This document shows positions 3,619 to 38,286 of a DNA stretch of 38,287 bases, piece by piece. The stretch's first letter is position 1. Each line of letters opens with the position of its first letter. The notes beneath the pieces were generated by a model. That model made no database searches and was not told the origin of the DNA. It saw nothing but the letters and a program-made list of their open reading frames with translations. The position numbers were made by a program, and so were the translations under genes. Source of the DNA: Anaerolineae bacterium (GTDB lineage: Bacteria; Chloroflexota; Anaerolineae; Epilineales; Epilineaceae); contig JAJCYU010000209.1 in assembly GCA_029262755.1 (NCBI GenBank), positions 1 through 38,287 on the forward strand. Reading direction: 5' to 3'.

Positions 3619-6600
3619 CTAGCGGCGCGGCCCCGGAGGCGGTGCGCCGCCCTGCCCGGGGCAGAGCGGGACACGCTGCGGAATGTACGGCGTGAAGATC
3701 GGCACACCTTCGAAGGCCTTGGACTCGTCGCCGGGCACGTCGGGCTCGCCGAGCGTGCCGCCGATGCGTTCCACGGCCACGGCGCCCAGGCCCACCAGGT
3801 TCCGCTGGAAGCGGCCCTGGTCGTCGAAGACGTCGTGTTCCCAGAAGGTTGCGCTGATGACCGCGCTGCCGAGGAAGCCCTGGCGGATAGCGCCCTGCGC
3901 GTTCAGGTCGATGTACTCGACCTGCTTCTCGTTGAGCTTCTGGCAGTAGTAATCCACAAGTCCGTTCTGGTCGTAGATATAGATCGCGTAGTCGGTGAAG
4001 CCCGGCTTCGGCACCAGGTTGGTGATCGCGAGCTCGCTGGTGATGCCGCGGTTGCCCTTGGCCAAGAGCGGGATGGCGATGACGGCCGAGCCGTCGGACA
4101 GACCACCCTTGCGCGAACCAATCTGCCAGTCGTAGGCCAGCTGCTCGGTCAACATGTTGTAGGCCACGGCTTCGCGGCGTTCTGTGCGAGCCGGGTCGCT
4201 CCACTTCTCGAGTATGACGATCGACTGAATGCGCGGTGGATCGACCAGCGGCGTACCACCGACCGTCCACTCCTGACTCTCGACGCGCGCACTGCCCACC
4301 CAGTTGCCCGGAATGCCCTCGATGACCGGCAGGAAGAAGACCTGCGTGCCGTGCGGACAGATCCAGTCGACCAGGGTGGTGATGATGTCGCCGGAGCGAT
4401 CCAGGAAGTAGACCTTTACCTTGGCGGCGTAGGTGCCGCTCAGGTTCTGGACCGCGATCGCGGTGTCCCAACCCTGGTACTCGGAGTAGGTCAGGGGCGC
4501 GTAGTTGATCTGCGAGCCGAGCGTGAAGAACTCATCCGCCGCCGGGATGTTCAACTCACCCGGGACGCCTCGGTAGCTGCTGAAGTGATTCGGGCCGAGT
4601 GTGTCGACCACCATCCCCAGCGGTTGGCTGCTGCGGATCCAGGCGCCACCGAGCCAGCCGGGGCCGATCACCGTGTTCGGGTCGAAGGAGACCGTCTCGC
4701 CCGGCGCCAAGCTGAGCACGTCGCCCAGGATCGGGCGCAAACAGTTGTCGATGCTGGTGAACCACAACTCCAACGAGGTGCAGCGGATGCCGGAATTGTG
4801 GATGTAGAGCGTGCTGTTGAGTTGCGCGACATCGGCGTAGACCAACGGCGCGTGATAGGTGTAGCCGCCGTCGACCGGGTTCTCGACCCCATGGGCGTCT
4901 GTCCCGATGCCGGTGTAGGCCGCGCTGACCGGCCGGTTCGGGTCCGTCGGATCGCCGCAGGTGCGGTTGACGCTCACGGCCAACGGCTGGCCGACGTGCT
5001 CACCGAAGTCGAGCTCGACCTGCTGCCCGACGCCGCCGAGCGGCCCGCGGAAGGTGCCGCCGTTGCTGTACGCCCGATCGAAGTCGAACCACCGTGCGTG
5101 ATTGCCCACGATCAGGTTGAAGAGCGACTCGCAGGCCAGCTGGTCGAAGGGCTTCTCGTTGCCATCCGGACCGGTCACAAGGTCCTGTGCGTTCATCGTG
5201 TAGACGATCGCGGATTGGCCACCCGGCGGCAACAGGTCGCTGGTGTAGGTCCAAGCGCTGCCCGGGCGCAATAGGCCCGTGCACTCGACCTTCAGCGGTC
5301 CCGCAGCCTGCGGCGGGCAAGCACCCGGCTCGCCCCAGATGACTAGGAATCCGGTGGTCGGCTCGGTGCCGACGTTCTGAATCTGGATCCAGGTCTCACA
5401 GTCGCCCGTTCCGAGCACCGGCAGCTGGAGGCGTGTGTCCGCCCCGCCGCAAGGCACGAAGAGGGTAACCGATGTCTCGGGCGCCGGCTCCACCGGCACA
5501 CAGGGCAGCGGTGTGAAGCCGGAGTTGACGGCTTCGGCCGTGGCCGTGGCGCCGTTCATCACCAGACCGCATTCGATCAGGTCTCCGTCGACCGTGTAGC
5601 TGAGGTTGACCGTCTCGCCCGGGCGCAGCGGCAGCTTCCCATCCGCGCCGCCTCGCAACGTGTCCGTGAAGACCACCATCGGCCACGGCTCGCGCGAGGT
5701 CTTGAGGGTGTCGGTGATGCGAATGCCTGTTAGGAAGGTGCTGCCGACATTGCTGACCTCGAGACAGAAGGTTACGTCGCGTCCGACCGGCACCTGCACC
5801 TGGCCGCCTCGGCCCGGGCACTCGCCGTTGACCGCAACCGTCTTCCGAATCTCCAGCCCGGCGCACTCGACTTGCGTGCTCTCGACCGTCTCGTTGTTGG
5901 AGAGGTCGGGGTCGAAGGTCGGTGTGCTCAAAGCCGGGAATTCGATGTTGTTCTCGCGCGTCTCGACGATCGCCCGGTTGTTGAGGACGCTTCCGCACTC
6001 GGCCGACTCGAGGACCATGACGCCGATCGTGACCGTGACGGCGTTGCCCGCATTCAGGCGGCCGCGCATCGTCGGGCCCATGCGCATCAGGCTCGGGTCG
6101 TTTCCGATCTGGACGGTGATCCGTCCGTCGTCGCGTACATCAACGAAGGCGTCCGGGTCACCCTGGACCTCGACCATGACCTGGGCTGGGTCGAGCGCAA
6201 CGCCCTCGTCGGGTAGCCAATCGACCAGGTAGACATCGGCCGCGTCCGCCATGCCGTCGTTGGTGACGACGACCTGGTAGGTGACCATGCCGCCCGGGCC
6301 GACCGGGTCGCATTCGAGGAAGCCGTCGCCGTCGTCCAGCACGTCGGTCTTGGTGACGCGCAGGTCGGCCTTGGCCTCGACGCGCGTGCACTCGGTGTCG
6401 AAGTTGTCCTTCACGCGGCCGTTGTCCGTGCGGCTGCCGATCTGAATGTCGTTGGCCGCCCAGAAGGGCCAGCCCGTCGCAATCGCGAAGGCCTGACAGG
6501 CGCTGCCCGCGCCGACGTCGCCGCGACCGTCCAGCAGGTAGCCTGGGTCGACATCGGCCACGAGGTAGAACTCGAAGACGTCGCCGGCCGCCAGCACACC

Positions 6601-9600
6601 CAGGTCCTCGAACATCACCATGTTGGTCATCGTGATTGCGTCGAGGCGGACGATCTGCGGCGTGTTTACGCCGTCGCCGGCCACCACGCTGCAACCGACC
6701 CTGTCATTCGGGTCCAGCGGCGCGCAATGGCTGAACTTGAAGCCGATGGGCAGTGTGTCCGTGATACGGACCTGGTCGGCGTCGGATGGCCCATTGGAGC
6801 CGAAGCGGACGCGATAGCGCTCGCGATCGCCGGCCATCACCGGGTCCGTCGTGTCCGTCTTGCTGATGAATACGCTGCTGCGGCGCACGATGGGGGTTGT
6901 CTCGAACTGCAGGTCATTTTCGGGACAGGGATCCTCGGTGCGGCTGGATACCTGCACGAAGAGCTCAAGGCTGATCATGGTGTCCGGCGGCGGCACGACA
7001 TCCGAGTCGATCTGCGCGACCAACAGGAAGCGCCACACATCCATGGCCGGCAACAACCCGGCCGGGTTGTCGGGCATCGTGCAGGTGAGCAGCTCCGGCG
7101 ACACCGGGTTCTCGACGCATACCGCGCCGATGGCGCCTGGCGCCTGACGGGTTTCGTAGCCCTCCGCGTCCACCGCGGCCAGACCGGCCGCTGCGGCGTT
7201 CGTCGTGGCGCCGCCCGCGCCGTCCAGCAGCACGGTCGTTACCGCGCCCGGCTCGATCCCGCCGCGCAGGCGCATACCCTCGGGCAGCTTCACCGTGACG
7301 CTCACACCGCGGGCGTCCGACTTGCCCGTGTTCGTGACCACGATGCCGTAGGTGACGATATCGCCCGCGATGGCCGGGTTCGGGCCGAGTGTGGCCATGC
7401 CCATGAACTCGCCCTCGGAGAGGACATCGAGCACCAGGTCGGCGCGGGTGTTGACGGTCGTCAGGTTGCTGACGTAGTTGTCGCCGTTGTCCAGGTCGAT
7501 GTGATCGCTGATGGCGTAGGCGTCGTTCTCGAGGATCGTGCCGTCACCCACGTCGGTGTTGATCGTCGACGTGATAGTCAGCGTTGCAACCTCGCCCGGC
7601 TGGCCGTCGCGCGGACTGCGCAGCAGGCCGATGCCGCAGGTGAGCTTGTCGATCGCGCTGCCGGACGTGCCGGTGTTGCAGCTGGTCGTCTCGGCACGCG
7701 GCGCGTCGAGGTGGTAGTCGGTGACCACGATGCCCGGGGGCAGGCGGTCGGTGAGCACCACGTTCTCCGCGTCGCTGGGGCCTTGGTTCACGACCACGAC
7801 CGTGTAGACCAACTCACCACCAGCCGTCACCTCGTCGATGATCGCGGTCATGCCGTTCGAGCAGCCGGTGTGGTTCTGACCCATAGCCGTCTTTGTGACC
7901 GCCAGGTCGGCGGCGTCGATGATCTGGTGCTCCACGTAAGCCTCGTTGTTCGACTGATCCGGATCTACGTCCAGGCTGGACACCGAGGCTACGTCGTTGA
8001 TGCTGGATGTCTGCTTGGCTGTCACGGCCAACTCGATCACCCAGCGCCCTGCGCTTGGGCCGAAGGGGCCGCCGAAGGTCTCGAGGTCGTCGTCCGAGAA
8101 CGGCGGCGAGCCGTCCGGCGTGTCCGGCAGCTCGCACGTTAGGGTCGCGCGCTCGACGATGTCCTCGATCAACGCGGCGCCCGGCGCACCGGCGCCGGCG
8201 TTCGGCACGGCCACGTCCAGCGCGCCGTCGTTCGGTGAGGTCACGCGGCAGACGGCCGTCGGGCGGTTGCCGTTGACGTCCGGATCGACCGCAACGATGT
8301 CGAAGAGCTCGCTGCTGACGATCTCGTCGGTCACCACCGTCCCGTGCGCGAAGCTCGGGCCGAGGTTGTCCACGATGATCGTGTAGGTGAGGATCTCGCC
8401 GGCGCGGACCCTGGCGTCCGGCTTGCCGAACTTGCGCACGCGCAGGTCGGCGACGGTGCGAATGTAGAGGTCCGCCGGGTCGCTGTTGTTGGCCAGGAAG
8501 CCGTCCGGCGTGTCGCTTGAGACGTGCGCGACGTTCGTGATGAGCGCGCCCGGCGCCACGTCCGGCGTTACGTCGAAGACCAGATCGAAGGTGTAGCGCT
8601 CGCCGTTGGCGAGTCGATTGTCCGGGGCCGGCAGCGGAACCTCACAGGTGATCAGGCTGCCCGCCTGGCTGCAGAAGTCATTCTGGTTGCGGAAGGCCAG
8701 GCCGGCCGGCACGGTGTCCGTGACAACCACGTTCAGCGCGTCGGAGGGACCATTGTTGAGCACGTCGATGCGGAAGCTGACTTCCTCGCCTGCCACCGGC
8801 GTCAGGTCGCTTGCGGTCTTCAGGATCGCCAGGTCGGCGTTCTGACCCACCCCGACGCTGGCATCCGCCGTGTTGTTGTCCGGACACGGATCCGCAGTAT
8901 CGCTGGACACCACGGCCGTGTTGTCGATCTGCGTCGTCGTCGCGTCCTCGTTGACCAGGGTGCGGATCAGGACCGTCACCGTCTGGCCGACGTCGACGGC
9001 GCCGAGCTCGCAGGTAACGAGGTTCGCGATGTCGACGCTGCAGCTGCCGACGCCGCCCACCACCTGGAAGCCAAGGTACGTCAGATCGGCGTCCAGCGTG
9101 TCGGAGATGACCACCGCCTGGGCGGTGCTCGGGCCGAGGTTGGTCACGCGTAGGGCGTACTCAAGCTGTTCGCCGGCCGTCACGGCGGTCGGCGTCGCGG
9201 TCTTGCTCAGCGCGAGATCCGCGGACGCGTCCACCAGGGTGATCGTGCTGGCGTAGTTCGCCGTGTTGTCGTCATCGAAGAGGTCGCTGGTGACGAAGAC
9301 GTCGTTCTCGAGCCGCGCGCCGTCCGGCACGCCCTCGGCAACCGACGCGGTCACGGTGAGGATGCGCTCGTCACCGACGGCCAACGTACCAAGGCCGCAC
9401 GTCAGCTTGTCGAGCGGGTTGCCCGGCGTGCCGGTGTCGCAGTCGCCGGCCGCCAGGCCGTCTCCGTCCACCACCGCGTAGTCTGTGACGACCACGCCCG
9501 GCGGCAGACGATCGACCAGCAGCACGTTCTCCGCCGTCGACGGGCCGCCGTTGACGACCGTCACAGTATAGAGCAGCGTCCTACCCGCGCTCACGCGGTC

Positions 9601-33600: not shown

Positions 33601-36600
33601 GGCCGGGTTCGGGCTGCTGGTCTTGCTCACGCTCAGGTCCGCGCTGAGCACGACGGAGCCGGGCACGCTCACGGCATTGTCCCCGCCGGTCGGGTCCGGC
33701 GTCGGCGAGGAGACGCCGGCTGTGTTGACCAGCACGCCCGCGCCCGGGGCGACGCTCGAATCGACGATGCCGTTGACGAGCACGGTGAGGCTGCCGCCGG
33801 CGGCCAGCGTTCCGACGTTGCAGGTGACGGTGTTGGGCAGCTGCAACGCGCAGGTTCCGCTGCCGCCCAGGATGGTCGCGCCGGTATAGCTCACGCCGGA
33901 GGGCAGCGCGTCGGTGACGACCACGCTCGCGGCGTTGGAGGGGCCGGCATTGCCCACGACCAAGGTGTATTGCACGGCCTCGCCGGCCGTGGCCGGGTCG
34001 GGCGCGCCGCTCTTGCTGATGCTGAGGTCCGCCTCGGCGCCCACGTCCACGCAGGCCTGAGCGAAGCTGTCCGTGCCGTCGGTGTCGAAGGCGTCGGAGG
34101 TGGCCATCGCGTTGTTGCACAGCGAGGTGCCGTCGGGCACGGCTGCCGAGACGAGGCCGACGATGGTGACCGTCTCCACCGCGGCGTCCGCCAGGTCGCC
34201 CATCGCACAGGTGACCTTGCCGGAGCCCTCCACGATGCAACTGCCGCCGCCCGTGGCCGCGGCGCTGACCGGCGCGATGCCGGCCGGCAGCTGGTCCATG
34301 AGCACCACGGCGGGCGCCTCGCTTGGCCCGGTGTTGGTGACGGTCAGCGTGTATGTGACGAGCTCGCCCGCCGTCGGCGCGACAGGGTCGGCCGTCTTGC
34401 TCAGCGCGAGATCGGCCGAGGCCTGCAGGCTGCGCTCCACGACGGCGTCATTGTTGGAGCCGTCGGGATCCGGCGCGGAGCTGACGACCGTGGCCGTGTC
34501 GTTCAGGCTGATGGCCTCGTCGCTGGTCACGTCGAAGCTCATGATCCACGTGCCGTCGCCGGCCGCGTTGTCCACGGGCAGGCTGGGCAGCGTGCAGGTC
34601 ACGGCATAGGTCGGGCCCACACCGGTGGCCGGCGCCGGGCCACAGGTCGCGCCGGTCTGGTTGCCGGAGACGTCGGCGTTGATCGCGGAGAGGTCGAAGG
34701 TCCCGTTGGCCACGAGCACGTCGTTGACGAGCACGTTGGTGGCCTCGCCGGGGCCCAGGTTCTGCACGATCAGCGTGTAGCTCAGGGACTCGCCCGCCAA
34801 GATGCTCTCATCCGGCTTGGCGAACTTCGTGATGCGCAGATCCGCGCCCAGCGCGACGCTCGGCGAGATCAGCGTGTCGCTGTCGTTGCCGGCGCTGGGG
34901 TCGTCCACGCTGGGCGAGTCCACCTCGACCACGTTGGTCAGCGGCGCGCCGCCTGCGTCCGCGTCCACATCCACGATGATGTCGAAGGAGACCGAGCCGC
35001 CGGCCGGCACGGTCAGCGGGCCGCAGGAAACCACGCCCGCCGCCTCGGAGCAGCTGGGATCCGTCGCGAAGGAATAGCTCACCTCGGCCGGCAGGGTGTC
35101 GGTGACCAGGGCGTCGGTCACGTCGCTGGGGCCGTCGTTCGTGACGACGATGGAGTAGGTCAGCGGTTCGCCGGCCTGCGCGGGCGAAGGCGAGGCCGTC
35201 TTGCTCACGCCCAGGTCCGCCTCGGCCACGACCGCGACGGCCACGCCGGGAGCGACCGCGTTGTTCGCGGTGGATGGATCGGACGTGGCGGAGGACACGC
35301 TGGCCGTGTTGGTCAACGAGGAGCCCGGCGCCACGGAGGCGTCGACGAGGGTGTCGAAGACCACGCGCACCGTCTGGTCCAGCAGCAGCGTGCCCAGGTC
35401 ACACGTGACCAGGCCGCCGGGGCTGACGCTGCACGTGCCGCTGCCGCCGAGCACGGTGGCGCCGACGTAGTTCACGCCGGCGGGCAGCGGATCTTCGAGC
35501 AACACCGAGCGCGCGGCGCTGGCGCCGCCGTTGGTGATGGTGAGCGTGTACTGCAGCGGCTCGCCGGCCGTGACCGGATCCGGGCTGGCGCTCTTGCTGA
35601 TGGCCAGGTCGGCCTCGGTGGTCACGGGTGTGATGACCGAAGCGCGGTTGTTGGCGTTGTTCTCGTCGAGGGTGTCCGACAGGACCGTGACGTCGTTCTC
35701 GAGCACCGAGCCCTCGGGTAGATTCGGGTCCACCGTCGCCGTGTAGGTCACGACCGCGGTGGCGCCGGGCGCGAGCGCGCCGAGCCCGCATTGGAAGGGA
35801 TCGGCGCCGCTGCCTGCGGTGCCCGTGGTGCAACCGGCGGGACCGAAGCTCGTGATGGTCACGCCGGCGGGCACGCGGTCGATGACCGACACGTTGTCTG
35901 CGGTGATCACACCGGTGTTGGTCACATTGATGGTGTAGTCGATGCTGCCGCCCGCGGTGGCCGACGCGGCGTCCGCGCTCTTGCTCACCGCCAGGTCGGT
36001 CGTGGGCGGCGGCGCGGGGGGCGCGTTCGGGTCGAAGCCGACCTGGTGCTCCACCGTGCTCTGATTGTTGCCCGTGTTGGGGTCCGAGGCGTCGCTGGTC
36101 ACTGAGGCAACGTTGTTGATGCTGTTGGCCGCCGCGCTCACGTCCACCACGATCTCGACAAGCTGCTGTTGGCCGGGATCCAGGTCTGGCAGCACGCAGG
36201 TGAGCACCGTGGAGCCGCTGTATGCGCCGACGCCCGGCGTGCACACGGCGCCGGAGATGGCCGTGATCTCGTAGGCGCCGTCGGATATGAGGGTGTCGGT
36301 GACGATCACACCCATCGCGGTCCCGGAACCCAGGTTGTCGACCAGGATCGTGTAGGTGAGGGTCCCGCCCGGCTCGACGCGAACGTCCGGCTTGCCGACT
36401 TTGAGAATGCGCAGGTCCGCGGTGGGCCGCGCGAGCACGTTGGCCGAGGCCGAGTCGTTGCCGGCGTCGGGGTCGGTGGTCGTCGCCGAAACGGTGGCCA
36501 CGTTGCTCAGCAGGCCCGTCGCGTCCTCATCGACGGTGACGCCCACCTCGAAGCTCACGGTTTCGCCCGCGGGAATGGTGCCCAGGCTGCAGGGCGTGCC

Positions 36601-38286
36601 GCCGGCGCCGCAGCTGTCGGTGTCGTAGAGATAGGTCACGCCGGCCGGCAGTGTCTCGGCCACCGAGACGCCCGTGGCGTCGGAGGGGCCGAAGTTGGTC
36701 ACGTCAATCGTGTAGACGATCAGGCTGCCGGGCACGCCGGAGCCGGAGGCCGACTTCGCGATGCCCAGGTCGGCCGTGGCCGCCACGGTGACGTTGGTGG
36801 GGCCGTCGCTGTTGTTGGCGCCGGAGGGATCAGCCGTCGCCGCGCTGACGCTCGCCGAGTTCGAGAGAACGCTGCCGCCCGCCACGCCCTCGTCCACCAA
36901 GGCGTCGATCACGATGGTGGCGCTGCCGCCGGCCGGGATTCCGGGCAGCTGACAGGTGACCACCTGGGTCGGCGAGGCCGTGCAGCTGCCGACCGCGCCG
37001 GAGACCGCGGCGCCCGCGAAAGCCGTGCCCGCGGGCAGGGCGTCCGTCACGACGACGTCCTCGGCCGCGCTGGGGCCGGCGTTCGCGACGTCCAAGGTGT
37101 ACTGCACCACCTCGCCCGCCGTTACGACGGCCGGCGACGCGGACTTCGAGATCGACAGGTCCGCCGAACCCTCCACCTGCGTCTCGGCGAAGGCGATGCT
37201 GTTGGCGTTGTTCGGGTCGTGGCTGTCGCTGGCCGCCTCGGCCGAGTTGTTGAGCTGGGTGCCATCGGGCAGGTTGGGGTCAACGTCCGCGGTGATGATC
37301 ACCGTGCTCGTCGTGCCGCTGATGACGGTGCCCAGGTTGCAGTCGATCTGGATGGCGCCCGAGACCAGCGGGGTCTCCGAGCACGTGGCGCCCGTGATCG
37401 AGGCCACGGTCAGCCCGGCAGGCAGAATATCCTGCATCGTGCTGTTGTCGGCTGTCGAGGGGCCGTTGTTCGTCACGTCGATGGTGTAGACCACCTGGTC
37501 GCCGGCCGTGACCGGGTCCGGACTGTCCACCTTGGTGACCTCGAGATCAGAGGTGTCCACGATCTGGACGAAGACCTCGGCGTCGTTGTTGGAGAGGTCC
37601 GGGTCCGGCGTGCCGATGCAGGTATCGCTGACCGTCGTGACCGTCACCTTGTTTTGCAACGTCTGCGTCTCGTCGGCGCGCACCGTCACGCGCACGGTCC
37701 AGCGGCCGGTGCCCGCGCCGCTGCCGGACGGCTCCAGGGGGTCGGTCAGGTCGCAGGTGAATGTGCCGGTGCCGGAGACACAAGTGGCCGGGCGATCGCT
37801 GACCGGAGCGCCCTGGATTACAAGGCCGGGCGACCCAAAGATGTCGTCGGTGATGCGCACGCCGCGGGCGTACGACGGCCCGTTGTTGTCCACGGTGATG
37901 ATGTACTCGAACTCTTCGCCCGCGGCGACAGAGCCACCCGAGCCGGCGACCTTCATGATCATCAGGTCCGCGCGGTCCTTGACCAGGTCGCACTCGGTGT
38001 CCGTGTCGTCGGCGTCACCGACCATGGGGTTCATGATCGTGACGGTGTTGCAGATCTGCGCCTCGCCGCACTCGGTAGTGGCCACAAAGTCCGGCCCCAC
38101 GACGAATCCCATACGATAGATGTAGGTGCTCGAGGCCGGGATGTCGATGGTGCCGCAGGTGACGTCGACCATGCCGCTCACGGGCGCACCCGGCGTACAG
38201 GTGGCCGGCGGCGGCAGCGTGTCGGCGGCATAGATCACGTTGGCCGGCACCGTGTCGCTGATGACCACACCGGAGACGGCGAAGTC
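3619..38286 (-). CDS. Giant extracellular DUF11 (conserved repeat domain) protein, at least 11,555 aa; probable fibrillar surface protein or adhesin stalk; 5' end outside window
   Basis: Single uninterrupted frame. Upstream of the track's GTG (38268) the frame stays open to the edge (DFAVSGVVISDTVP...), which is the middle of a domain, so the real start and any signal peptide lie further right. Recurrent DUF11 signature (A/S)DLxxxK...xAGxxxxYTxxVxNxGPSxAxxVxxxDxLP...C...C.LG.L...NxAxV...DPxxxNN. Strong G/C third-position bias in this frame. Confidence 0.96.
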   Translation of the reverse strand, partial: DFAVSGVVISDTVPANVIYAADTLPPPATCTPGAPVSGMVDVTCGTIDIPASSTYIYRMGFVVGPDFVATTECGEAQICNTVTIMNPMVGDADDTDTECDLVKDRADLMIMKVAGSGGSVAAGEEFEYIITVDNNGPSYARGVRITDDIFGSPGLVIQGAPVSDRPATCVSGTGTFTCDLTDPLEPSGSGAGTGRWTVRVTVRADETQTLQNKVTVTTVSDTCIGTPDPDLSNNDAEVFVQIVDTSDLEVTKVDSPDPVTAGDQVVYTIDVTNNGPSTADNSTMQDILPAGLTVASITGATCSETPLVSGAIQIDCNLGTVISGTTSTVIITADVDPNLPDGTQLNNSAEAASDSHDPNNANSIAFAETQVEGSADLSISKSASPAVVTAGEVVQYTLDVANAGPSAAEDVVVTDALPAGTAFAGAAVSGAVGSCTASPTQVVTCQLPGIPAGGSATIVIDALVDEGVAGGSVLSNSASVSAATADPSGANNSDGPTNVTVAATADLGIAKSASGSGVPGSLIVYTIDVTNFGPSDATGVSVAETLPAGVTYLYDTDSCGAGGTPCSLGTIPAGETVSFEVGVTVDEDATGLLSNVATVSATTTDPDAGNDSASANVLARPTADLRILKVGKPDVRVEPGGTLTYTILVDNLGSGTAMGVIVTDTLISDGAYEITAISGAVCTPGVGAYSGSTVLTCVLPDLDPGQQQLVEIVVDVSAAANSINNVASVTSDASDPNTGNNQSTVEHQVGFDPNAPPAPPPTTDLAVSKSADAASATAGGSIDYTINVTNTGVITADNVSVIDRVPAGVTITSFGPAGCTTGTAGSGADPFQCGLGALAPGATAVVTYTATVDPNLPEGSVLENDVTVLSDTLDENNANNRASVITPVTTEADLAISKSASPDPVTAGEPLQYTLTITNGGASAARSVLLEDPLPAGVNYVGATVLGGSGTCSVSPGGLVTCDLGTLLLDQTVRVVFDTLVDASVAPGSSLTNTASVSSATSDPSTANNAVAPGVAVAVVAEADLGVSKTASPSPAQAGEPLTYSIVVTNDGPSDVTDALVTDTLPAEVSYSFATDPSCSEAAGVVSCGPLTVPAGGSVSFDIIVDVDADAGGAPLTNVVEVDSPSVDDPSAGNDSDTLISPSVALGADLRITKFAKPDESILAGESLSYTLIVQNLGPGEATNVLVNDVLVANGTFDLSAINADVSGNQTGATCGPAPATGVGPTYAVTCTLPSLPVDNAAGDGTWIMSFDVTSDEAISLNDTATVVSSAPDPDGSNNDAVVERSLQASADLALSKTADPVAPTAGELVTYTLTVTNTGPSEAPAVVLMDQLPAGIAPVSAAATGGGSCIVEGSGKVTCAMGDLADAAVETVTIVGLVSAAVPDGTSLCNNAMATSDAFDTDGTDSFAQACVDVGAEADLSISKSGAPDPATAGEAVQYTLVVGNAGPSNAASVVVTDALPSGVSYTGATILGGSGTCALQLPNTVTCNVGTLAAGGSLTVLVNGIVDSSVAPGAGVLVNTAGVSSPTPDPTGGDNAVSVPGSVVLSADLSVSKTSSPNPAVPGGELTYAVTVVNNGPSDVPDAEVVDVLPLEATFLYATHPSCVLSAGTGPGGADEVICSPLAVAAGGSLSFEIVVEIDDDAAGSVSNAVGVGSLSGIPDPNPANNDPPPTVTNLDATADLKITKFGKPDGEIVAGETVTYTLVVQNLGPSTAADVFLNDLMVASGAFRVTGIDADVLSNQTGEACTPPSPPDVPSAGNQLSISCTLPFLAPDNAAQDGTWIVEVTAVADEAISLNNSATVDHDGDDPDMTNNMAMAEREITASADLALSKSTDEPVKIAGGTITYTLQVTNTGPSAAPDVVVMDQMPTGISPTGASASPSGSCTLGAGGKVTCQLGTLADGESRAITISGPVATDIVSGTLLCNDAMASSGAFDDDSTNHFAQACVTVQTEVDLVIAKSDTPDPVTAGAALQYVIQVGNAGPSAATGVVVTDTLPAALSFVGVNVIGGTGTESCGFALPSFLSCSLGTLDAGDTRTILLDTFVDPATPAGTDVFTNTAGVSSDGGETDDTNNTASEATSVQASADLGVSKTAEPNPAVAGESLTYEIVVTNDGPSAVSDALVTDTLPAGTTFVFASGAVCSEPSTGVVECGPLALDPDESVVIEITVNVAEDASGDFLTNVVEVDSPTVDDPNAANDSDTLLTALNGAADLRIQKFVKPDGSVAAGDLVTYTLIVDNFGPSAAANVRITDVMVSDGLYQLVAVTDNQGGACTTAPGLATDTVGPNYRAEVDCSLASLAAFERWEVVVVAEAGDEAISLNNEALVFSDAVDGDTSNNFAAGAIQVTAEADLVVTKSDDPDPVTAGETVTYTVDVTNGGPSTAENVVLMDLLPPELNVLGVAGPSCTVETFGDGRQQVTCGVGTLAVGASGTVTITALVDADVPDGSVIVNGALATADTFDPNNGNNNVNEPTTVAALSTMTISKVDTLDPVVAGETVAYIVNVTNSGPSTARNVRLIDIVGADDWPFLTLLAAEITGGAGAGCFAEPVTYSVQCDLGDLSVGENRAIFLTFALDPSTPAGTILDDVLALDVDSPIALGPFTDITEDTTVDHLADVGITKTALDATPTAGGDLTYRIDVSNDGPSTAFNLQVTDLLDADLSYLYATSATCTEAAQLVTCDVGDLLPGQSLSFEITVEVDEAASGTLDNTATVTWESLDATAAGTGSGGSAADLETVNLDAVADLAVKKYGLNGSVAAGETISYTVVVDNWGPSVATGVIITDVISSDGAFTITGIDPEGVCAATTPATPAAAGPGNATITCDITSIAPNEQLVFTIGVTADEAQQISNTATIASDAADPDVSNNQAMAVLSVDAEADLAITKTQSGGDLMAGGTVEWTVTVTNIGDSTAPNSTLFDRLPPGIVLTAVGGDVSLASCDTGTPGDPADLFRCGLGTLAVGETATAILTASIPSDLPDDTVLENDAWAGSDAFDPDNSNNQASTISIVNSFTEIGVSKSPSVNPVAAGDEMDYLLTVENLGSAVAYDVTVEDTLPAVYELLGTSIARGVGITTAGQGGACTLGGLGVNCQLGAMPVGEVVHITLHVRVRPDAVPPAVISGDTTVGNSVIATASNADGDTDSHTETITRVTDIGVEKTALDPTIIAGDEVTFEITVSNDGPSDYNVDPGSGAIVLTDVYDAAVLEFLSDTDSCSVTVPGVLSCTIGTLQAGGSVTFRVTFRVLEDAPLGLTTNSATVPEPPATTDPNTANNFDDADTFVEAHADLRVLKFGKPDGQVAAGETLTYTLIVDNLGPSFAHGVVVTDDIVADGPFSTAVADADVGDTYTTESCSVIVISPTRQQVVCSLGADDMPVFDPSNGEGSWTILVAVTASEAMDINDYARVSSDDLDPDFGNNTAFVQHEVTAVADLSVSKTSIGQLGPNDCAGTVFASIGDVTPGGLITYTLTATNSGPSTADNVVLVDRLPAGITVLGYTADQGSCATGTPGSALDRFTCGLGELAVGASAVVTISALADADLGEGVLENDVTVSSDSFDDNNANNATSQISTLQPRADLAIAKDAPATVLAGTGIEYSLTVTNTGLSMAEDVEVVDTLPAGVSFTGSSIVGAGGTCAETTTGTVVCQLGNVMPGDVVRITLRGQVDATTGGTLSNIATVTTDTVDPCDTNDTATADTAVALGADLRIEKTVDNNMPTAGETVRYTIKVTNLGPSAAMTVTVTDTLPSGVTYLTDSTGGDCDASGPPLVICSLGDLPPGGMTSFTIDATVDADVPDGTALTNTATVGSETPDPNTDNNTDAIEVIVGSGYDLRIQKFVKPDNEASAGDTVTYTVLVDNFGPSTAGNLIVTDTMIASGPYVVEAITSTVGGAPMGACAAAAPSAIGTPTGGPNFEFNFRCDLGTLDQFGRWEIVVVASAQDAISLNNQACVVADGLDADIGNNCVDRALRIEATADLALDKRVNGLVATTATVGNPIHGGDIVTYTLTTTNNGPSQAENVVLTDQIPPELNVDVPGITAVVSDPAGTGSCSLTPANELTCGLGTLNAGATAVVTYTAWIDAEVPNFTELENGALATADTFDPTIANNYSVAEVETFAIAELELTKTDEPDPVVAGEIVTYEIVIFNTGPSPAPNVVIHDTIGPDDWPYLTLQSFGLTGGEADCNADHVTFNVFCDVGSIEVEGSRILTLSFAVDPNTPDGFVLDDEIGTVSTAGSGVSVGFLFASDTTETTAVVNESAVALTKTAVSRSQTPAGTDEFGNLIAVAGGTLTYELSVTNEGPSTAFNVAVSDTLDAAYSYLYATSATCSEAAQLVTCDLGDLLPGETRSFEITVEVDDAAEGPIDNTAEVTWESADATPAGTGSGGTASDDETVAVAQIADLRITKYGKPDGSVRAGENLSYTIVVDNLGPSVARSILVTDVLSSDGVFTIEDIDTGGACSSVSLATPATVGPGNVAFTCVIDDMAVYEQVIFDVIVTADEDQSINNTASVISQQAEDLDQSNNQALVQHEVTTVADLEISKVQSGGDLIAGGTIEWTIGVTNNGTSTAENVAVFDRLPPGIVVTDVTGDASLASCATGTPGSAVDQLTCGLGTLADGESATFTIVADLDDGLPDGTTLENDACTYSDEFDPVNVDNCTSTISEIASTATLEISKADAPDPVNAGELLDYTITVTNTGPSVAMDVAITDVLPAGVALLSSGITRGVGGTPAGSGGSCVYAPAGNTVDCQMGAMPVGEVVEIALSLQVLPSAVPGDEADGDVTLTNTAGAAASNADLVSTSEDTTVFRVTDLSITKTAQDAAPTAGGQVTFELVVTNNGPSDYNGDNGIVVTDTFDTAVLAYAVDSGSCVVSGAGELECPIGQLGAGDSVAFEIIFDVLADSPLGLQAANSALVGAPTDTLDPDLSNNADDADLDVNSVADLRVLKFGKPDGTVRAGENLTYTLIVDNLGPSFGHGVVVTDEILSDGLFEIVSINPDVNGSFIAPTCAPAPGSFSQRATVTCTLNEDLPRFEPGNGLGRWVIEIVVTGEDGASINDIASVTSNDLDPDASNNQAIAQHEVTEVADLSIDKTALGQVGFEDCIGTISEVPDAVTPGLLITYTLSVNNAGPSPAENTQVSDRLPAGLQVIDYAADGGSCSTGTPGSAVDRMVCTLGELLPGETRLITITALVDPRISEPQGIEAVIENDALVTSNVFDDDNSDNVDSSIVSIDGRADLMLIKEAPAAVLAGDPIQYLIQVFNRGPSMAHNVKVFDSLPAELTLLNAYVVNHPGTCAELGSGPTVTLVTCDLGTMLPTDGAAIVVNAVVDADASGTIDNEASVNSNATLDFCQANNVAEVVTEIGTGADLAIDKSVDDNMPTAGQTVRFTLDVTNLGPSDAIGVVVTDTLPAGLTYLTDSLGGACDASSPPLVVCDLGDFTPGQSQSFTIDATVDAGVAEGTPLVNSAEVQSETPDGNQGNNVDAAEIIVRAVHDLRIQKFVKPDNVASAGETVTYTVRVQNFGPSVARNLIISDVMLADGPYVVSAITSTVLGAPAGSCTATPPSAIGTPAGGPNFEFRFDCALDALAVNGEWEVVLIAEAQDEITLNNEACITSDGTDPNTGNNCVDRAILIDSSADLQLEKRVNGLLSDTVVVGDPSDGGEIVTYTIAVENLGPSASENVVIADLIPDEITVIAPSLAITGAGSCALSPANELACGLDTMAAGEIVTVTFEAWVDADVPAGTRLANGATVRADTADPDNSNDYGVAELIATPEADLSLMKTAQPATVTAGTALQYTIVVSNTGPSTARDVVVIDDLPDGLSVTGTQILDGTSLPVAGASCATELGTNVLTCTVGDLDVDETVRVVVDTLVDADLTSVDNPLTNAASVVSGTTDPSAINNSDSVDVALEHDAPVEITKTAVSRSTTPGGDDDGGTIVATAGGTLSYEIVVENPGPSTAFGVVVTDTLDAAYTYLYSTSAGCSAAGQDVTCDLGDLQPGESRSFEIVVAVDAAAEGPIANEAFAAWTLGDGTLLGTADDESTPVAQIADLKVRKYGKPDGSVRAGENLTYTVVIDNLGPSVARDVLITDIISSDNVFTIQAIDDNGVCDAGITPAITPGVTTGGPGDFVFTCAIDELDVLEQQLLTLVVRAEEDQSINNTVSIGSGQAEDPDQSNNDAIVEHDVTTVADLELSKVQSGGTLIAGETIEWTVTVTNTGPSTAENVIVYDRLPPGITVTDVTGDATLAGCSTGTPGSAADRLSCGLGTLAAGESASFTIVADLDDNLPDGTLLENDACAFSDEYDANNANNCASTITEIASVAELEITKSDAPDPVIAGERLEYAISVTNNGSSVAHDVFVNDNLPAGMSLVSYEILRGVSGTPSGSGGVCQDYSGGFGVVGCQLGDMPVGEFVSIQLEVAVAPDAVPAADVDGSILVTNAVSANGSNAPLVNGSAQTTINRVTDLSIDKIALDDTPVAGEQVTYQITVSNAGPSDYNGDDGIVVTDTYDIAVLSYAVDSDTCALAAAGVLECSIGQLEVGDSTSFEITFDVLANSPLGNQVANSAEVPVPADTTDPNLANNVDDADTFIESVADLRVLKFGKPDGSVRAGELLTYTLFVDNLGPSFGHSVFVTDEIVSDGVFDIVSINPDVNGSFFGPPAPACEVIAPPSAGAGAPAPVFDISQRATVSCELGGDLPLFEPGSGQGRWVVEIVVRSDDGVDINNYASTQSADDDPDASNNTALAQHEVTEVADLSIVKTALGQVGPEDCFDTILELDDAVTPGLLMTYTLTINNAGPSVAENVQVIDRLPVGLTVIDYAADGGSCATGTPGSALDRFTCGLGDVGVGETRLVTITTLADPTLSEPQGVEAILENDVIVTSDVLDIDNFNNQDSHLASIEGRADLAISKVGPDSVLAGDPIQYTLVVTNTGPSMAHTVVVTDALPAAVTLTGSVVIGAGGACNEGPTDAVTCELGNMMPGQVATIVLSGVVDEDATGDLVNLAGVRSVTLDPCLDDNSTAFITELGTGADLVIEKTVEDNMPTAGGDVRFTLKVTNLGPSDAINVVVTDTLPVSVTYVTDSTGGLCSLAAPGPNGEDVLVCAIGDIAAGDMRTITIDADVDPAVADETVLKNVAETSSDTADLDTSNNMDMIEIVVQAINDLRIFKFVKPDDSVQAGDTITYTVFVDNLGPSVARNVLMTDTMVASGPYTVTSVTADLGGVCTPAVPPAVPVNNSNFLFEFGCGLDALGVLDRWTIELVAIAADEISLNNEARVLSDGTDPDPSNNFVDVSLNIDGTADLALEKRVDGALSTTAVVGDPADGGQIVTYAISVTNQGPSAAENVIVTDALPPEMNVVVTSLTATVDDPFHLASCELTPDNLITCGLGTINAGGMGLIRFEAWIDADVPAGTELENGASVTADTFDPSLANNFGTAEVEAAALSDIFLQKQDAPDPVVAGEFVEYRIVARNDGPSVARNVRLLDNHGSDFQYLELVDVSTNGGPEAECHPVELGNAIRCDLGDMPVGETRVVTLRFLVDPSAPGPLTLTDNLTIFGDSPLTVAAGSDTTESTVVAYEAPVTISKTAVSRSQTPAGTDEQGNLIAVAGGTLTFEITVANPGPSTAYGVVVTDTLPAEFTYLYATSATCAGGPPVTCTLGDLLPGESGTFEIVVAVDAAAEGPITNTAETGWTLADGTALFNSDDETVAVAQLADLRIKKYGKPDGDVRAGELLTYTVVVDNLGPSVARGNLITDILSSDNVFDIVEFDTGGVCDGGIFDAAGAPLAIPAIGVGPGDVLVTCAVDDLTVYEQIILTVVVTADEDQSINNTATVLSLQAEDPDQDNNRAMVLHDVTTIADLEIDKVQSGGSLIAGEDIEWTVSVTNLGPSTAENVTVLDRLPPGIVVTAMSGDAGLGSCETGTAGSAFDQLTCGLGTLDAGQSATFVITADIDADLPDGTILENDVHVASDEYDDNNANNFASTLSTVESLAVLTIEKEVEPAALAAGESQTVEILLINDGPSVAMDVWVGDILPFPGLLVTDWQILRGQLDSPAGSGGSCVIDNPGNPSAIVECQLGSMPVGERVQVLLTVFAPPNLIPPGDVDGTISGENEAAAAGSNAAFVSALAPVEYERVTDLRAEKSVLDNTPVAGEQVTFSVTVWNDGPSDYNSSLDDIVVVDTFDTAVLAYLVDSDDCALTAPGELTCTIGQLPAGESSTFEITFAVLENAPLGPSVNVAEVPVPLATEDPNPDNNIDDADIFVESVSDLRIEKFGKPDGSVRAGELLTYTLIVDNLGPSWAHNVAITDEIVSDGVFDIVSINPDVNSDYAGPTCVIDGPNNGLFNAPAPQTDLNQRATVRCALGEDMPVFDPPATSGRWIVEIVVTADEGVDINNLASVSSSDIDPDNSNNTALAQHEVTEVSDLEVSKSAVGMVGPEACGAPPLPMPDMVTPGLMLTYTVVVTNTGPSDAENVQLTDRLPYGLTLVGYSLDRGRCATGTPGSAADKLTCGLGDMNVGDTATLTVNALVDFDYPDLGWLENDAFALSDNFDDDNADNYVSNLTQAKARADLAITKSGPAAVTAGEAIQYQLTVANAGPSLARDVVVTDTLPADVTFVSAQVFGSAGSCAEGLTDAITCELGDLAPGTVVTIVINGQVDADAPAGPISNVAGVTSATTDPCLADNTADATTEIGTVADLVVDKTASTNEPVAGGTIEYTISVTNDGPSDAENVVVTDTLPVGITAVLTDPTPPTCQILAGAGPGGVDLVVCTFGTMVAGQMESFTILADVDPNLTPGTLVKNTALATSTTPDPDAENSMDMVLGRVVTIADLRVRKFGKPDETVRAGELLTYTIIVDNLGPSFANSVVVTDEIVSDGVFDIVSVNADVGLDFGGAASCDPTSGTFSQRAEVVCRLDTQLATFDPGSSNGRWTVEIVVTAPETQDINDVASVSSLDVDPDPSNNEAYVEHEILDTSDIAVVKTAVGEVVGEACFIEPVTDQVTAGLGMTYTIQVTNFGPSTAENAILIDRLPAGVTVTGYETTIGGCETGTAGSGIDKLTCGLGSIPVGGTETVTITAVVDPALADGSILENDAFAISDNIEPLNPNNYDSNLTVVGTNADLVVSKSDTPDDGVLAGEAIRYTLTVTNTGPSVATEVLLTDDIPAGVTVDAATVLGVGVPCTVLANGDVACDLGALAVGEIALIQIDALVDSDAIPGGANALVLDNVATVDAATSDCDTADNTTVNAHTALRLADLEIVKTMSDVTPIAGRELVYTLEVTNLGPSDSDPTAPVIVIDTLPADVTFEIDTDACVEGPEDTLTCTLPPLAAGQSTSFDVTVEVDPDATPSVGPVPDPTWLTNMATVSVATADDTVDPGAPNSGNNRTVASAFVETSADLRVRKFGKPDGTVRAGELLTYSILVDNLGPSFAHGVVVTDEIVSDGVFDIVSINPDITGDFAGSTSCVLEAPSGSPTTVTAANAVGGVGAELITDISQRATVSCELTELPVFGPPNGEGRWIIEIVVTADEGVSINNVASVSSDDDYDENFANNEAFAQHEVTEVSDLRVSKESAGEVRDLGCDPLYTITPDRVSAGRTLLYTVTVVNGGPSTAENVLLVDRLPPGVVVTDYAVVDGDGLAAGDCDTGTPGNPLDKLTCGLGTLAVGDERILTVTASVAEGVPDGARLENDVFVTSDLFDDDNTANYASTITLVDASADLALSKTATPTAVTAGEQLEYALRVTNLGPSTAQAVVISDTLDADLTYLGFQVVGGVGSCSVDIANLVTCELGAVDVGQTVTVLIRTLVNEDATTTQIDNTAVVSSDTADPCPDNNTADASVGVGQNADLAILKTASDLTPVAGEEVSFRIDVLNNGPSDALNVVVTDTVPAGLAFRNQNDFCSQAGSLITCEVPLPAPDNRLANGERYTFDLVFDVTPDVAPGALITNVAHVSSDTPDGFLANNSDPADLYIRTVADLRVRKFGKPDARVRAGEILTYTIIVDNLGPSFAHGTVVTDEIVSSELFDIVAVDPDVNGNRPTAVCRVTSPNDGALDVAVPNAGAGAPGAALIEDIVERATLTCELPDTPDGSPPFSDDDLETFGGPFGPSAGRWVIELAVTAKQTSSINDVASVSSLDVDPDQSNNEAYVEHQIIDAADLAVTKTAMGQNHTGCSNGMTAIIDEVTAGGELVYTVVVVNQGPSDAENVVLTDRLPPGIVVTDYHLDAPRAETTSCNTGTSGSAIDKLTCGIGLLRSPRDGQPGEVATLTITSTINTDVGDGTILENDAYAISDHIDLDNGDNYVSNLTTVNTRADLVLDVLSEGEFMGMATLGPNPAIAGDIVTYGIVVTNTGKSDARGVSVTVKLPEGMRLRGGIEPGAVTTVLLDGAGGATTNAAAAGLAAVDAEGYETRQAPGAIGAVCVENPVSPELLTCTMPDNPAGLLPAMDVWRFLLVAQIDSDVVPPPDTMISLELFVQVSSRTEDPCPENDLQFETTPIVRRSSVFISKTDTTDPVMAGDRERYRVRFGSNGPSDADQVRITDTLPIGFKFSHCAPLDPNDRVGCSVVAGDGVNTPQIVRLDAITMTNMVMFEDLGVLAAGDVFEFYLVADVDPGYLLDGRGDVGAGSACQAFAIATGWPFWAANDIQIGSRTDNGRVKDNFDTECTRVEAKADLRVTKTDVLDDGDGFLECDPVGPGGMVTYQVVVTNDGMADAADVYLVDWLPDEGVALDPAQVMVEVQGDPDAFVDVRDDGRITVQIGNDPSLMRMGPTMRGRLNAGNAVTVTIGVMVLESAECGSVLNNRAIVETRENNIEFPALSTPTFDPDLSNNETVESTQVECAGLEIRKTVAVNGECPGRGGQVQVPVGRDVTFCLEVSNVGSTFLTGIRITDTLKTSREPWPMVVFTDTLRGGADGKLPLRPGETVNLSYTVDGDLIECGLVMNGATATAEAVNSGFTPLPCVPVEPAPETSVTLFVPCGGADTRLQLPVLGTGDCETWIQIQNVGTEPTTGFLVIWGEPGACPPQAAGPLKVECTGLLRPGSAWTYTSDLLPPGGQSAIVYTMNAQDLVTGPDGNEKPFDQLACESLFNLIVGNHARWFDFDRAYSNGGTFRGPLGGVGQQVELDFGEHVGQPLAVSVNRTCGDPTDPNRPVSAAYTGIGTDAHGVENPVDGGYTYHAPLVYADVAQLNSTLYIHNSGIRCTSLELWFTSIDNCLRPILGDVLSLAPGETVSFDPNTVIGPGWLGGAWIRSSQPLGMVVDTLGPNHFSSYRGVPGELNIPAADEFFTLGSQINYAPLTYSEYQGWDTAIAVQNLSGTYAAKVKVYFLDRSGDIITTLVDWICPHGTQVFFLPVIEGIPGNWVGSARVESQEWTVGGTPLVDPPRIQSIVILEKWSDPARTERREAVAYNMLTEQLAYDWQIGSRKGGLSDGSAVIAIPLLAKGNRGITSELAITNLVPKPGFTDYAIYIYDQNGLVDYYCQKLNEKQVEYIDLNAQGAIRQGFLGSAVISATFWEHDVFDDQGRFQRNLVGLGAVAVERIGGTLGEPDVPGDESKAFEGVPIFTPYIPQRVPLCPGQGGAPPPGPRR
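3622..5448 (-). other. Non-DUF11 C-terminal region (~610 aa) of four related beta-rich subdomains; candidate surface-anchoring or assembly module
   Basis: Four similar starts: LQLPVLGTGDCETWIQIQNVG, YHAPLVYADVAQLNSTLYIHNSG, NYAPLTYSEYQGWDTAIAVQNLS, IAIPLLAKGNRGITSELAITNLV. Similar late motifs: GGQSAIVY, GWLGGAWIRS, NWVGSARVES, GFLGSAVISA. Richer in aromatic and basic residues than the stalk. Confidence 0.7.
5449..37971 (-). repeat. Tandem array of ~78 complete DUF11-like Ig domains (~120-190 aa each): 19 A-B-C-D tetrads plus two terminal domains
   Basis: A-type domain starts (mostly xDLRxxK[FY][GV]KPD) located by hand at 37971, 36420, 34845, 33246, 31653, 30060, 28449, 26826, 25125, 23508, 21855, 20190, 18558, 16860, 15210, 13557, 11871, 10179 and 8451. 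Exactly three other domains lie between successive A starts. Terminal domains start at 6369 and 5862. Confidence 0.88.
11872..31653 (-). repeat. Four copies of a 12-domain (three-tetrad) super-repeat, 4.8-5.0 kb each
   Basis: DLRIxKFVKPD recurs at 31653, 26826, 21855 and 16860 (unit lengths 4827, 4971, 4995, 4989 nt). Each is followed by a KYG-type tetrad (with KxQSGGxLxAGxxxEW and GPSDYN domains), then a KFGKPD...GPS[FW][AG]H tetrad. Confidence 0.88.

Follow-up and report, generated by a model that had tools for sequence, protein, structure and literature searches.

Why should a protein of more than eleven thousand residues keep four kinds of domain in unbroken rotation, and does that rotation reflect the packing of a folded fibre or the way in which its gene has grown? 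The question is raised by contig JAJCYU010000209.1 (C209) of an Anaerolineae bacterium placed in the family Epilineaceae of the Chloroflexota (assembly GCA_029262755.1); the window analyzed here is this entire contig, 38,287 nucleotides, which belongs to a 5.06-Mb bin of 428 contigs with 67% G+C. A single frame on the reverse strand (3619..38286, −; 11,555 codons, stop codon at 3619–3621) takes up 34.7 kb without an internal stop codon and is open at its 5′ end, the N-terminus lying beyond the contig end. An earlier reading made from the letters of the window (the sequence-only reading) had described in it 19 consecutive A-B-C-D tetrads of domains and had proposed that the tetrad is the structural unit of the protein. 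The explanation that we prefer, with a probability of roughly 0.7, is that the gene encodes a giant secreted surface fibre protein, the stalk of which consists of old A-B-C-D modules and was lengthened by the duplication of blocks of four and twelve domains.

Results

Four-domain period of the DUF11 array

The array belongs to the DUF11 family, which was renamed CLIPPER in 2025. Pfam recognizes 75 DUF11 (PF01345) stretches in the giant protein (29 + 28 + 18 in three pieces, which score 1687, 1490, and 858 bits where the cut-off is 24.6, with E = 0 or 6.5e-264). NCBIfam assigns TIGR01451, with 28 + 17 stretches in two scanned pieces, and TIGR04226, an isopeptide domain of the RrgB type. A hidden Markov model (HMM) built from the protein itself delineates 79 contiguous envelopes, of which 74 are strong (residues 105–10280), one is partial and stands at the start, and four are weak and lie near the end; slot profiles parse the whole as d-(ABCD)x18-AB-c-c-b-d.

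When the pairwise identity of domains i and i+k is averaged for each lag k, values of 0.296–0.31 are obtained at lags that are not multiples of four, as compared with 0.378–0.402 at lags 4, 8, 16, 20, 28, 32, and 40, and 0.488, 0.45, and 0.41 at lags 12, 24, and 36, lag 12 being the strongest peak. Domains of the same slot have mean identities of 0.436 (A), 0.429 (B), 0.349 (C), and 0.391 (D), against 0.289–0.32 between slots, and the closest relative is found in the domain's own slot for 75 of the 76 domains, the exception being T19D (the fourth domain of the presumed tetrad 19). In a maximum-likelihood tree of 78 domains, supported by the Shimodaira–Hasegawa-like approximate likelihood-ratio test (SH-aLRT), a single clade unites the 19 A domains (SH-aLRT 91) and another the 19 B domains (98), that of slot D takes in the 19 D domains plus T19C, and slot C is paraphyletic. 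Slot labels change only 4 times on this tree, as against 39–46 times in the first 10 of 200 label shuffles, and none of the 200 gave a number as low. These identity peaks, nearest neighbours, and clades confirm the A-B-C-D periodicity of the giant protein with overwhelming statistical weight, and the clustering by slot that the sequence-only reading had put forward as a check of its proposal is borne out by the tree, completely for A and B and with the departures just mentioned for C and D.

Within the window all 18 A-to-A intervals equal four domains, so that the earlier claim that no tetrad gains or loses a domain stands. The number of tetrads has to be corrected. The span formerly given to 19 tetrads, 6370–37971, corresponds to residues 106–10639 and 76 domains, of which T01–T18 (8455..37974, −; residues 105–9944) are clean and complete tetrads of 517–576 residues each, whereas tetrad 19 is an A-B pair followed by degenerate cap domains. 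The pair (T19A and T19B, residues 9945–10280; 7447..8454, −) is placed by slot profiles and by the tree, and relatives end in a like manner. The four DUF11-like caps (residues 10281–10922; 5521..7446, −), among them T19C and T19D, obtain weak HMM scores of 11.8–45 bits and fall into classes c, c, b, and d; T19C is devoid of the Lys/Asp/Asn triad described below, and both T19C and T19D sit on long branches with weak scores as class c. Of the slot signatures proposed at the same time, 13 of 14 motifs are exclusive or nearly exclusive to the slot named, each in 5–15 of the 19 domains, whereas [YF]..[DT].C is present in one domain only. Ahead of T01 stands a partial D-like domain of class d (residues 2–102; 37981..38283, −), from which it follows that the array continues upstream, off the contig.

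Twelve-domain repeats within the array

A longer period encloses the tetrad. Lag peaks, DNA repeats, and a tree of whole tetrads agree that T05–T16 (11875..31656, −) form four copies of a higher-order repeat of twelve domains, ~4.95 kb per copy, in which three tetrad subtypes succeed one another in the order beta-gamma-alpha; the starred clades of the tetrad tree are T5/8/11/14, T6/9/12/15, and T7/10/13/16/17/18. The DNA repeat families are spaced by 1.58–1.73 kb and 4.94–4.99 kb and are at most 86% identical over 152 nt. In the domain tree, the subtrees within slots A, B, and D are mutually congruent, which is the signature of block duplication. The array thus shows both marks of a super-repeat, namely autocorrelation peaks (at 4 and 12) and slot clades with congruent subtrees, and expansion by several domains at once is a documented rule in repeat proteins (PMC1553488). 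As a separate observation, T11C, the C domain of tetrad T11 (20194–21858, −), lies outside the group of T5C, T8C, and T14C and joins the generic C domains, which looks like a same-slot replacement or a gene conversion by another C domain.

The longest exact DNA match measures 34 bp between domains of the same slot (median 12, n = 684 pairs) and 22 bp between domains of different slots (median 11, n = 2166 pairs). Given matches of no more than 22 bp across slots, out-of-phase homologous exchange would have been impossible for long, and given no more than 34 bp within slots, in-phase exchange would by now be rare. Synonymous differences are near their plateau, the proportion of synonymous differences (pS) being 0.38–0.50 in the closest pairs as against 0.45–0.48 in the oldest, with a strong GC bias. 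Judged by this near-saturation and by the ceiling of 86% identity, the copies are old. The ratio of nonsynonymous to synonymous substitution rates (dN/dS; 0.46–1.06 in 15 tetrad pairs) was dropped as a measure of constraint, since synonymous sites are saturated.

The same figures bear on whether the regularity might be an artefact of assembly, brought about by misjoined or collapsed repeats in a metagenome bin. The division of the bin into 428 contigs would allow for this, as would the depth of only ~5–11x in the likely source run and the length of at most 3.6 kb of the independent contigs from that run. However, the 34.7-kb frame is free of stop codons, exact repeats of at most 34 bp with the above identity are too diverged to collapse, and the architecture recurs in other genomes; moreover, independent Logan contigs from a biofilm metagenome cover 30 of 30 bins of 8455–28452 with 0 differences. 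Repeats so far diverged make misassembly unlikely, and we consider an assembly origin of the period scarcely credible. Read joints with sides of 20–36 letters between repeated motifs were treated as chance matches. None of the sequencing runs listed is of RNA.

Modules and periods in related proteins

The same slots recur in relatives, for which C-numbers denote contigs of the same genome and L-numbers denote loci of other genera of the same family. The paralogue on C44 (4,834 residues) is parsed as DcDcc-(ABCD)x4-ABC-cap, and arrays of period 4 in other genera contain seven tetrads (L001), five (L002 and L003), four (L004), and at least three (L009); shorter relatives read 'ABCD-AB-cap', 'ABCD-ABC-cap', or 'AB-cap', so that the copy number ranges from 0 to 7, and in relatives, too, the terminal A-B pair with its degenerate cap stands ahead of the C-terminal module. 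A metagenomic giant that lacks the C-terminal module (P0123) contains five period-4 units. Tetrads cluster by protein lineage in the tetrad tree, which indicates four or more independent expansions of arrays, whole tetrads being added in each. As its distribution implies, the A-B-C-D module is older than the giant gene and predates the split of several genera.

It is at this point that the proposal of the sequence-only reading has to be weighed, in which the tetrad is a structural unit with slot-specific interfaces, in a helical or zig-zag packing or in chains associated in register. The form in which it is weighed here adds that the tetrad would be kept by selection, with four domains to one turn or zig-zag of a rigid rod, and that the fibre would break on the loss of a domain. 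The retention of the module across genera, with 0 out-of-phase intervals in the long arrays (C209, C44, L001–L004, and L009), speaks for this proposal. A census of domain strings, of which 88 are distinct among 109 frames that include many orthologues and hence are not independent, speaks against it: 75 of 95 A-to-A intervals among relatives equal 4, and the remaining 20 are 5 (6 cases), 6 (10), 1 (3), and 10 (1). All of these 20 belong to short forms, 'ABCd-x-dAB' and 'DAAB' for instance. Length change in multiples of four, expected of homologues under that proposal, is therefore seen in long arrays and fails in short ones, and the free insertion or deletion of single domains, which was to count against it, is matched in part by the irregular spacings of the short relatives. 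The module is not inviolable, and its irregular forms argue against a hard structural requirement for the tetrad.

Other giant DUF11 proteins point in the same direction. Among 63 surveyed (5,506–7,876 residues), seven have a lag other than 1 that exceeds the median by at least 0.10 (lags 2, 3, 7, and 10); the periods found in other DUF11 giants are 2, 3, 5, 7, 9, and 10 (7 in P0121 and P0181, 3 in P0123, 5/10 in P0154, and 10 in P0171), and many giants are without a period. Within the genome of C209 itself, period 2 is seen in a 5,629-codon paralogue (C237), and C236, C296, and C57 are without a period. Such variety indicates that multi-domain units of different size are common in the DUF11 class, and periods other than four, or none, count against a tetrad kept by structure.

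The uniform arrays of the same genome also bear on another explanation, according to which the four types are kept so that neighbours remain dissimilar, limiting misfolding or strand swapping during export, the number four itself having no meaning. Identity at lags 1–3 is indeed ~30% in the giant protein as compared with 0.38–0.44 at lag 1 in C237, C236, C296, and C57, and selection against aggregation as a force favouring multi-domain duplications has been discussed by Bjorklund et al. (PMC1553488). However, long DUF11 arrays with neighbour identities of 0.38–0.64 exist in this genome and in other bacteria, so that neighbour diversity is not required for the DUF11 fold, and the paired cysteines of B and C domains described below would be left unexplained. 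We regard this explanation as improbable.

Domain chemistry and the model of a tetrad

In a CLIPPER domain of solved structure (9IFR), a Lys-Asp-Asn(Asp) triad forms an intramolecular isopeptide bond (PMC12617251). Among the 76 domains of the giant protein, the triad is K-D-N in 66, K-D-D in 8, and K-E-N in 1, and is absent from 1 (T19C); the spacing of the T10D triad (K8/D42/N100) matches that of Lys715/Asp748/Asn806 in 9IFR (PMC12617251). A core Cys pair is present in 76 of 76 domains. From these residues we infer that isopeptide and disulfide bonds form in the giant protein.

Tetrad T10 (residues 4926–5476; 21859..23511, −) was modelled with AlphaFold2 (AF2), fed with a 47-row in-phase tetrad alignment. 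The model is all beta, with a predicted local-distance difference test (pLDDT) score of 95.1 and a predicted template-modelling score (pTM) of 0.73. Foldseek matches it best to Ig-like domains from the legs or stalks of integrin alpha chains and of PrgB (E down to 8.5e-25); the PDB hits are generic multi-Ig matches with query-normalized template-modelling scores (TMq) of at most 0.39, which are silent on rod geometry; a profile search of PDB sequences gave weak integrin-alpha matches only (best E 3.7e-06). 9IFR is not among the matches listed in either search. The domains of the tetrad are thus predicted to have the Ig-like beta-sandwich fold, and the pTM, at 0.73 for a chain of four domains with an elongated shape, is suggestive of definite angles at the junctions. 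The confidence of this one model, judged by its scores and for the natural domain order, is in favour of a structural tetrad.

Junctions between the domains

Residues and cysteines were compared in 47 tetrads from C209 and its relatives. Residues specific to a slot (at least 80% in that slot and rare elsewhere) number six, five of them in A, one in D, and none in B or C, which is few for a unit with slot-specific interfaces. The cysteines tell more for such a unit. An extra Cys, giving an odd count, occurs in both the B and the C domain in 9 of 47 tetrads and in neither in 38, and never singly; the nine are T7, T10, T13, T16, T17, and T18 of the giant protein and, elsewhere, the clade of L005, L007, and L015, and they thereby fall in two tetrad clades. 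T19 shows the pattern too. The B cysteine is located in an insertion after strand A (A-B loop) and the C cysteine before the last strand (F-G loop), as exemplified in T10 by Cys 5088 of T10B (23023..23025, −) and Cys 5336 of T10C (22279..22281, −), the two halves of the pair. Judging from the strand order in the model, both loops would face the B-C junction, and the extra cysteines are candidates for an inter-domain disulfide. The only odd-Cys case outside the B/C pairs again concerns adjacent domains (37600–38286, −): T01A has three Cys, and five are seen in what is visible of the partial domain ahead of it.

Counted from the triad Asn of a domain to the Lys of its successor, the spacing is 34 residues at all 19 B-to-C junctions and 34–35 at 17 of the 19 A-to-B junctions; it varies between 30 and 38 at C-to-D and between 34 and 41 at D-to-A. 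The D-to-A spacing being the most variable, the seam between tetrads would be the loosest junction, and the B-to-C junction may be a fixed interface, stapled by a disulfide in some tetrads. Both the invariant B-to-C and the variable D-to-A spacing are in keeping with a structural tetrad, although the median lengths of all four junction types are nearly equal (34–35.5 residues). The giant DUF11 protein GhlA, with which the stalk is compared below, can be cited on both sides, in that it forms a probably three-stranded filament (PMC13319060, bioRxiv 10.1101/2025.08.19.671072) and yet is described as beads on a string, with domains that are tilted and possibly flexible.

Taken together, the slot clades, the paralogues, and the expansions by whole tetrads uphold the tetrad as a unit of evolution, which is itself nested in a twelve-domain unit. 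Its promotion to a unit of packing by the sequence-only reading goes beyond these results, strict phase being what block duplication and recombination between same-slot copies would produce by themselves; the tetrad is a possible packing unit in three dimensions, and we hold it rather doubtful that structural selection on it is the main cause of the phase. Less likely again is a stronger version, in which the module and the twelve-domain block are the structural period of a covalently locked fibre, with a fixed tilt and twist at each junction, a B-C disulfide in one subtype, and chains in register, making up a rope of >290 nm on a new glycan-binding anchor.

The C-terminal module

The array and its caps are followed by an all-beta module of 633 residues (3622..5520, −), which is conserved at 50–68% identity in at least 15 other frames of the same genome and in every long relative fetched. 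It matches no Pfam family at E values up to 10, no NCBIfam entry, and nothing in a PDB sequence search; the ESM Atlas returned unnamed clusters only, plus one DUF5719 lead. The predicted structure is compact and all-beta (pLDDT 75, pTM 0.82), and its Foldseek matches have TMq of at most 0.15. Residues 210–323 of the module superimpose on TM1070 (1nc7) with Z = 12.2 and a root-mean-square deviation of 2.4 over 103 aligned residues, in a model with a pLDDT of only 75, and on ASRT (2ii7) with Z = 8.8, while the other sub-domains resemble generic sandwiches only (Z 5–7). The ASRT/TM1070 (ASRAH) superfamily is predicted to bind sugars and has secreted versions in Chloroflexi (PMC2739507). The C-terminal module is probably a wall or glycan anchor.

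Relatives of the module at 74 loci in species genomes come nearly all from metagenome-assembled genomes labelled Anaerolineae, Ardenticatenales, Caldilineae, Chloroflexi, or Ca. Epilinea brevis, which often contain the module many times over, the exceptions being one labelled Gammaproteobacteria and a few labelled 'bacterium'. Proteins in the protein database that terminate in the module have subtilase, lamin-tail, peroxidase, VWA, or SBBP passengers. Signal-peptide-like segments stand at the start of those paralogues of which the N-terminus is intact. On the basis of these segments, the relatives of the module, and the match to TM1070 and ASRT, the likeliest layout of the giant protein is a signal peptide, a variable head, the DUF11 stalk, the cap, and the wall or glycan anchor. 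Being common to many secreted proteins, the module may serve Anaerolineae-type Chloroflexota generally as an anchor at the cell surface. The same genome contains a large family of surface proteins with this module (C44, C108, C205, C384, C142, and others), in which stalks range from a few to at least 79 domains, and DUF11 frames are present on at least 20 of its contigs.

Contig ends and neighbouring genes

None of the contig ends of the same genome overlaps the 5′ end of the giant gene by 15 bp or more; C239, C62, and C101 are 3′-open fragments of relatives that do not abut the giant frame. Downstream on the same strand lie genes for a three-PDZ protein (1740–3341, −) and a HAMP-HisKA histidine kinase (1–1695, −), the latter cut by the contig end, and no link between these genes and the giant gene is evident in the window.

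Discussion

The results described above lead us to favour history, that is, block duplication, as the main cause of the strict phase. In the proposed course of events, the window would encode the C-terminal 11,555 residues or more of a secreted surface fibre protein of an uncultured member of the Chloroflexota, in which a stalk of at least 79 DUF11/CLIPPER domains is followed by the A-B pair, the four caps, and the 633-residue beta-sandwich module. Each domain, Ig-like and with its triad and Cys pair, would carry an isopeptide lock, which may stiffen the stalk, and the terminal module would hold the protein on the envelope by glycan binding. The stalk would have grown as whole modules were duplicated in tandem, joined in this gene by duplications of three-module (~4.95 kb) blocks. 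As only copies of the same slot would have been alike enough to recombine, gains and losses would have comprised whole modules and the phase would have been kept; following the duplications, the copies would have diverged too far for much recombination of any kind. Strict phase can thus be accounted for by block duplication and recombination between same-slot copies, without structural selection. Scaled by GhlA, in which 49 domains extend over ~180 nm (~3.7 nm per domain; PMC13319060), the 79 domains would make a stiff rod of ~290 nm or more.

Several points weigh against this reading. Two of them concern the junctions and the types themselves: B and C cysteines that are present together or absent together in 47 of 47 tetrads, along with the invariant B-to-C spacing, point to selection at a junction, and the persistence of four types across genera at ~30% identity, in arrays that start and stop in phase, is more than recombination could achieve by itself. 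The others concern the evidence. The Logan contigs do not exceed 3.6 kb, so that the long-range order derives from the original assembly; dN/dS values of 0.46–0.82 are uninformative on constraint owing to saturation; secretion and orientation are deduced from paralogues, the N-terminus being missing here; and the isopeptide and disulfide bonds are read from the residues present.

The gene is a very clean record of stalk growth, in which a four-type module was copied in blocks of four and twelve domains, independently in several lineages. If the periodicity is purely historical, it neatly illustrates a rule already known and adds little to it. The gene also offers defined fragments for testing the effects of domain order, stiffening by covalent bonds, and quanta of stalk length, which would be ~15 nm for four domains at ~3.7 nm. 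Titin has super-repeats of 7 and 11 domains. If the locked-fibre version were true, the fibre would be a bacterial counterpart of titin-like molecular rulers, the sequence period encoding the pitch of the rope.

Comparison with known systems

Among the huge proteins of bacteria, giant DUF11/CLIPPER proteins are recognized as a class but have received very little study (PMC11573180, PMC12617251), and one of them, GhlA, has recently been shown to build grappling-hook filaments in Chloroflexota (PMC13319060). A literature search at the level of listings found no description of a four-type DUF11 super-repeat, and the accessible part of PMC12617251 makes no mention of such periodicity. With the CLIPPER stalk domains represented by 9IFR, the domains of the giant protein share the Pfam family, the spacing of the triad, and the Ig-like beta sandwich (PMC12617251). 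In contrast to CLIPPER adhesins, the giant protein, which is longer than 11,555 residues, contains at least 79 copies, above any of the 63 proteins surveyed, arranges them in four old, ordered subtypes with a twelve-domain repeat, has a Cys pair in each domain, and ends in the module without Pfam or NCBIfam match.

GhlA of Litorilinea aerophila (6,596 aa, 49 DUF11 domains) is the closest in kind, being likewise a giant bead string of DUF11 domains on a Chloroflexota surface (PMC13319060, bioRxiv 10.1101/2025.08.19.671072), and the giant uninterrupted DUF11 string that characterizes it is also found here. By description, which is the level of this comparison, GhlA has an N-terminal hydrophobic anchor and a hooked tip, whereas the conserved element of the present protein is C-terminal. 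In the ASRAH superfamily (ASRT/TM1070; PMC2739507), the likeness extends to the superposition of module residues 210–323, the extracellular location, and the occurrence in Chloroflexota; it differs in that its secreted versions are fused to amidases in Roseiflexus and Chloroflexus, whereas the module ends stalk and passenger proteins, and in that the match, strong for one sub-domain, has no counterpart at the sequence level. Finally, the seven-domain super-repeat of nebulin (PMC1553488) resembles the stalk in its autocorrelation peaks at the unit size and in expansion in mid-array by several domains at once. Unlike super-repeats of the nebulin type, that of the giant protein is bacterial, without exons, and nested (4 in 12), and its four-domain unit is common to many paralogues and genera, in which it has been amplified independently, and is not known to have a partner of matching structural period. 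Altogether, the giant protein is an unusually large and orderly form of a known kind of protein.

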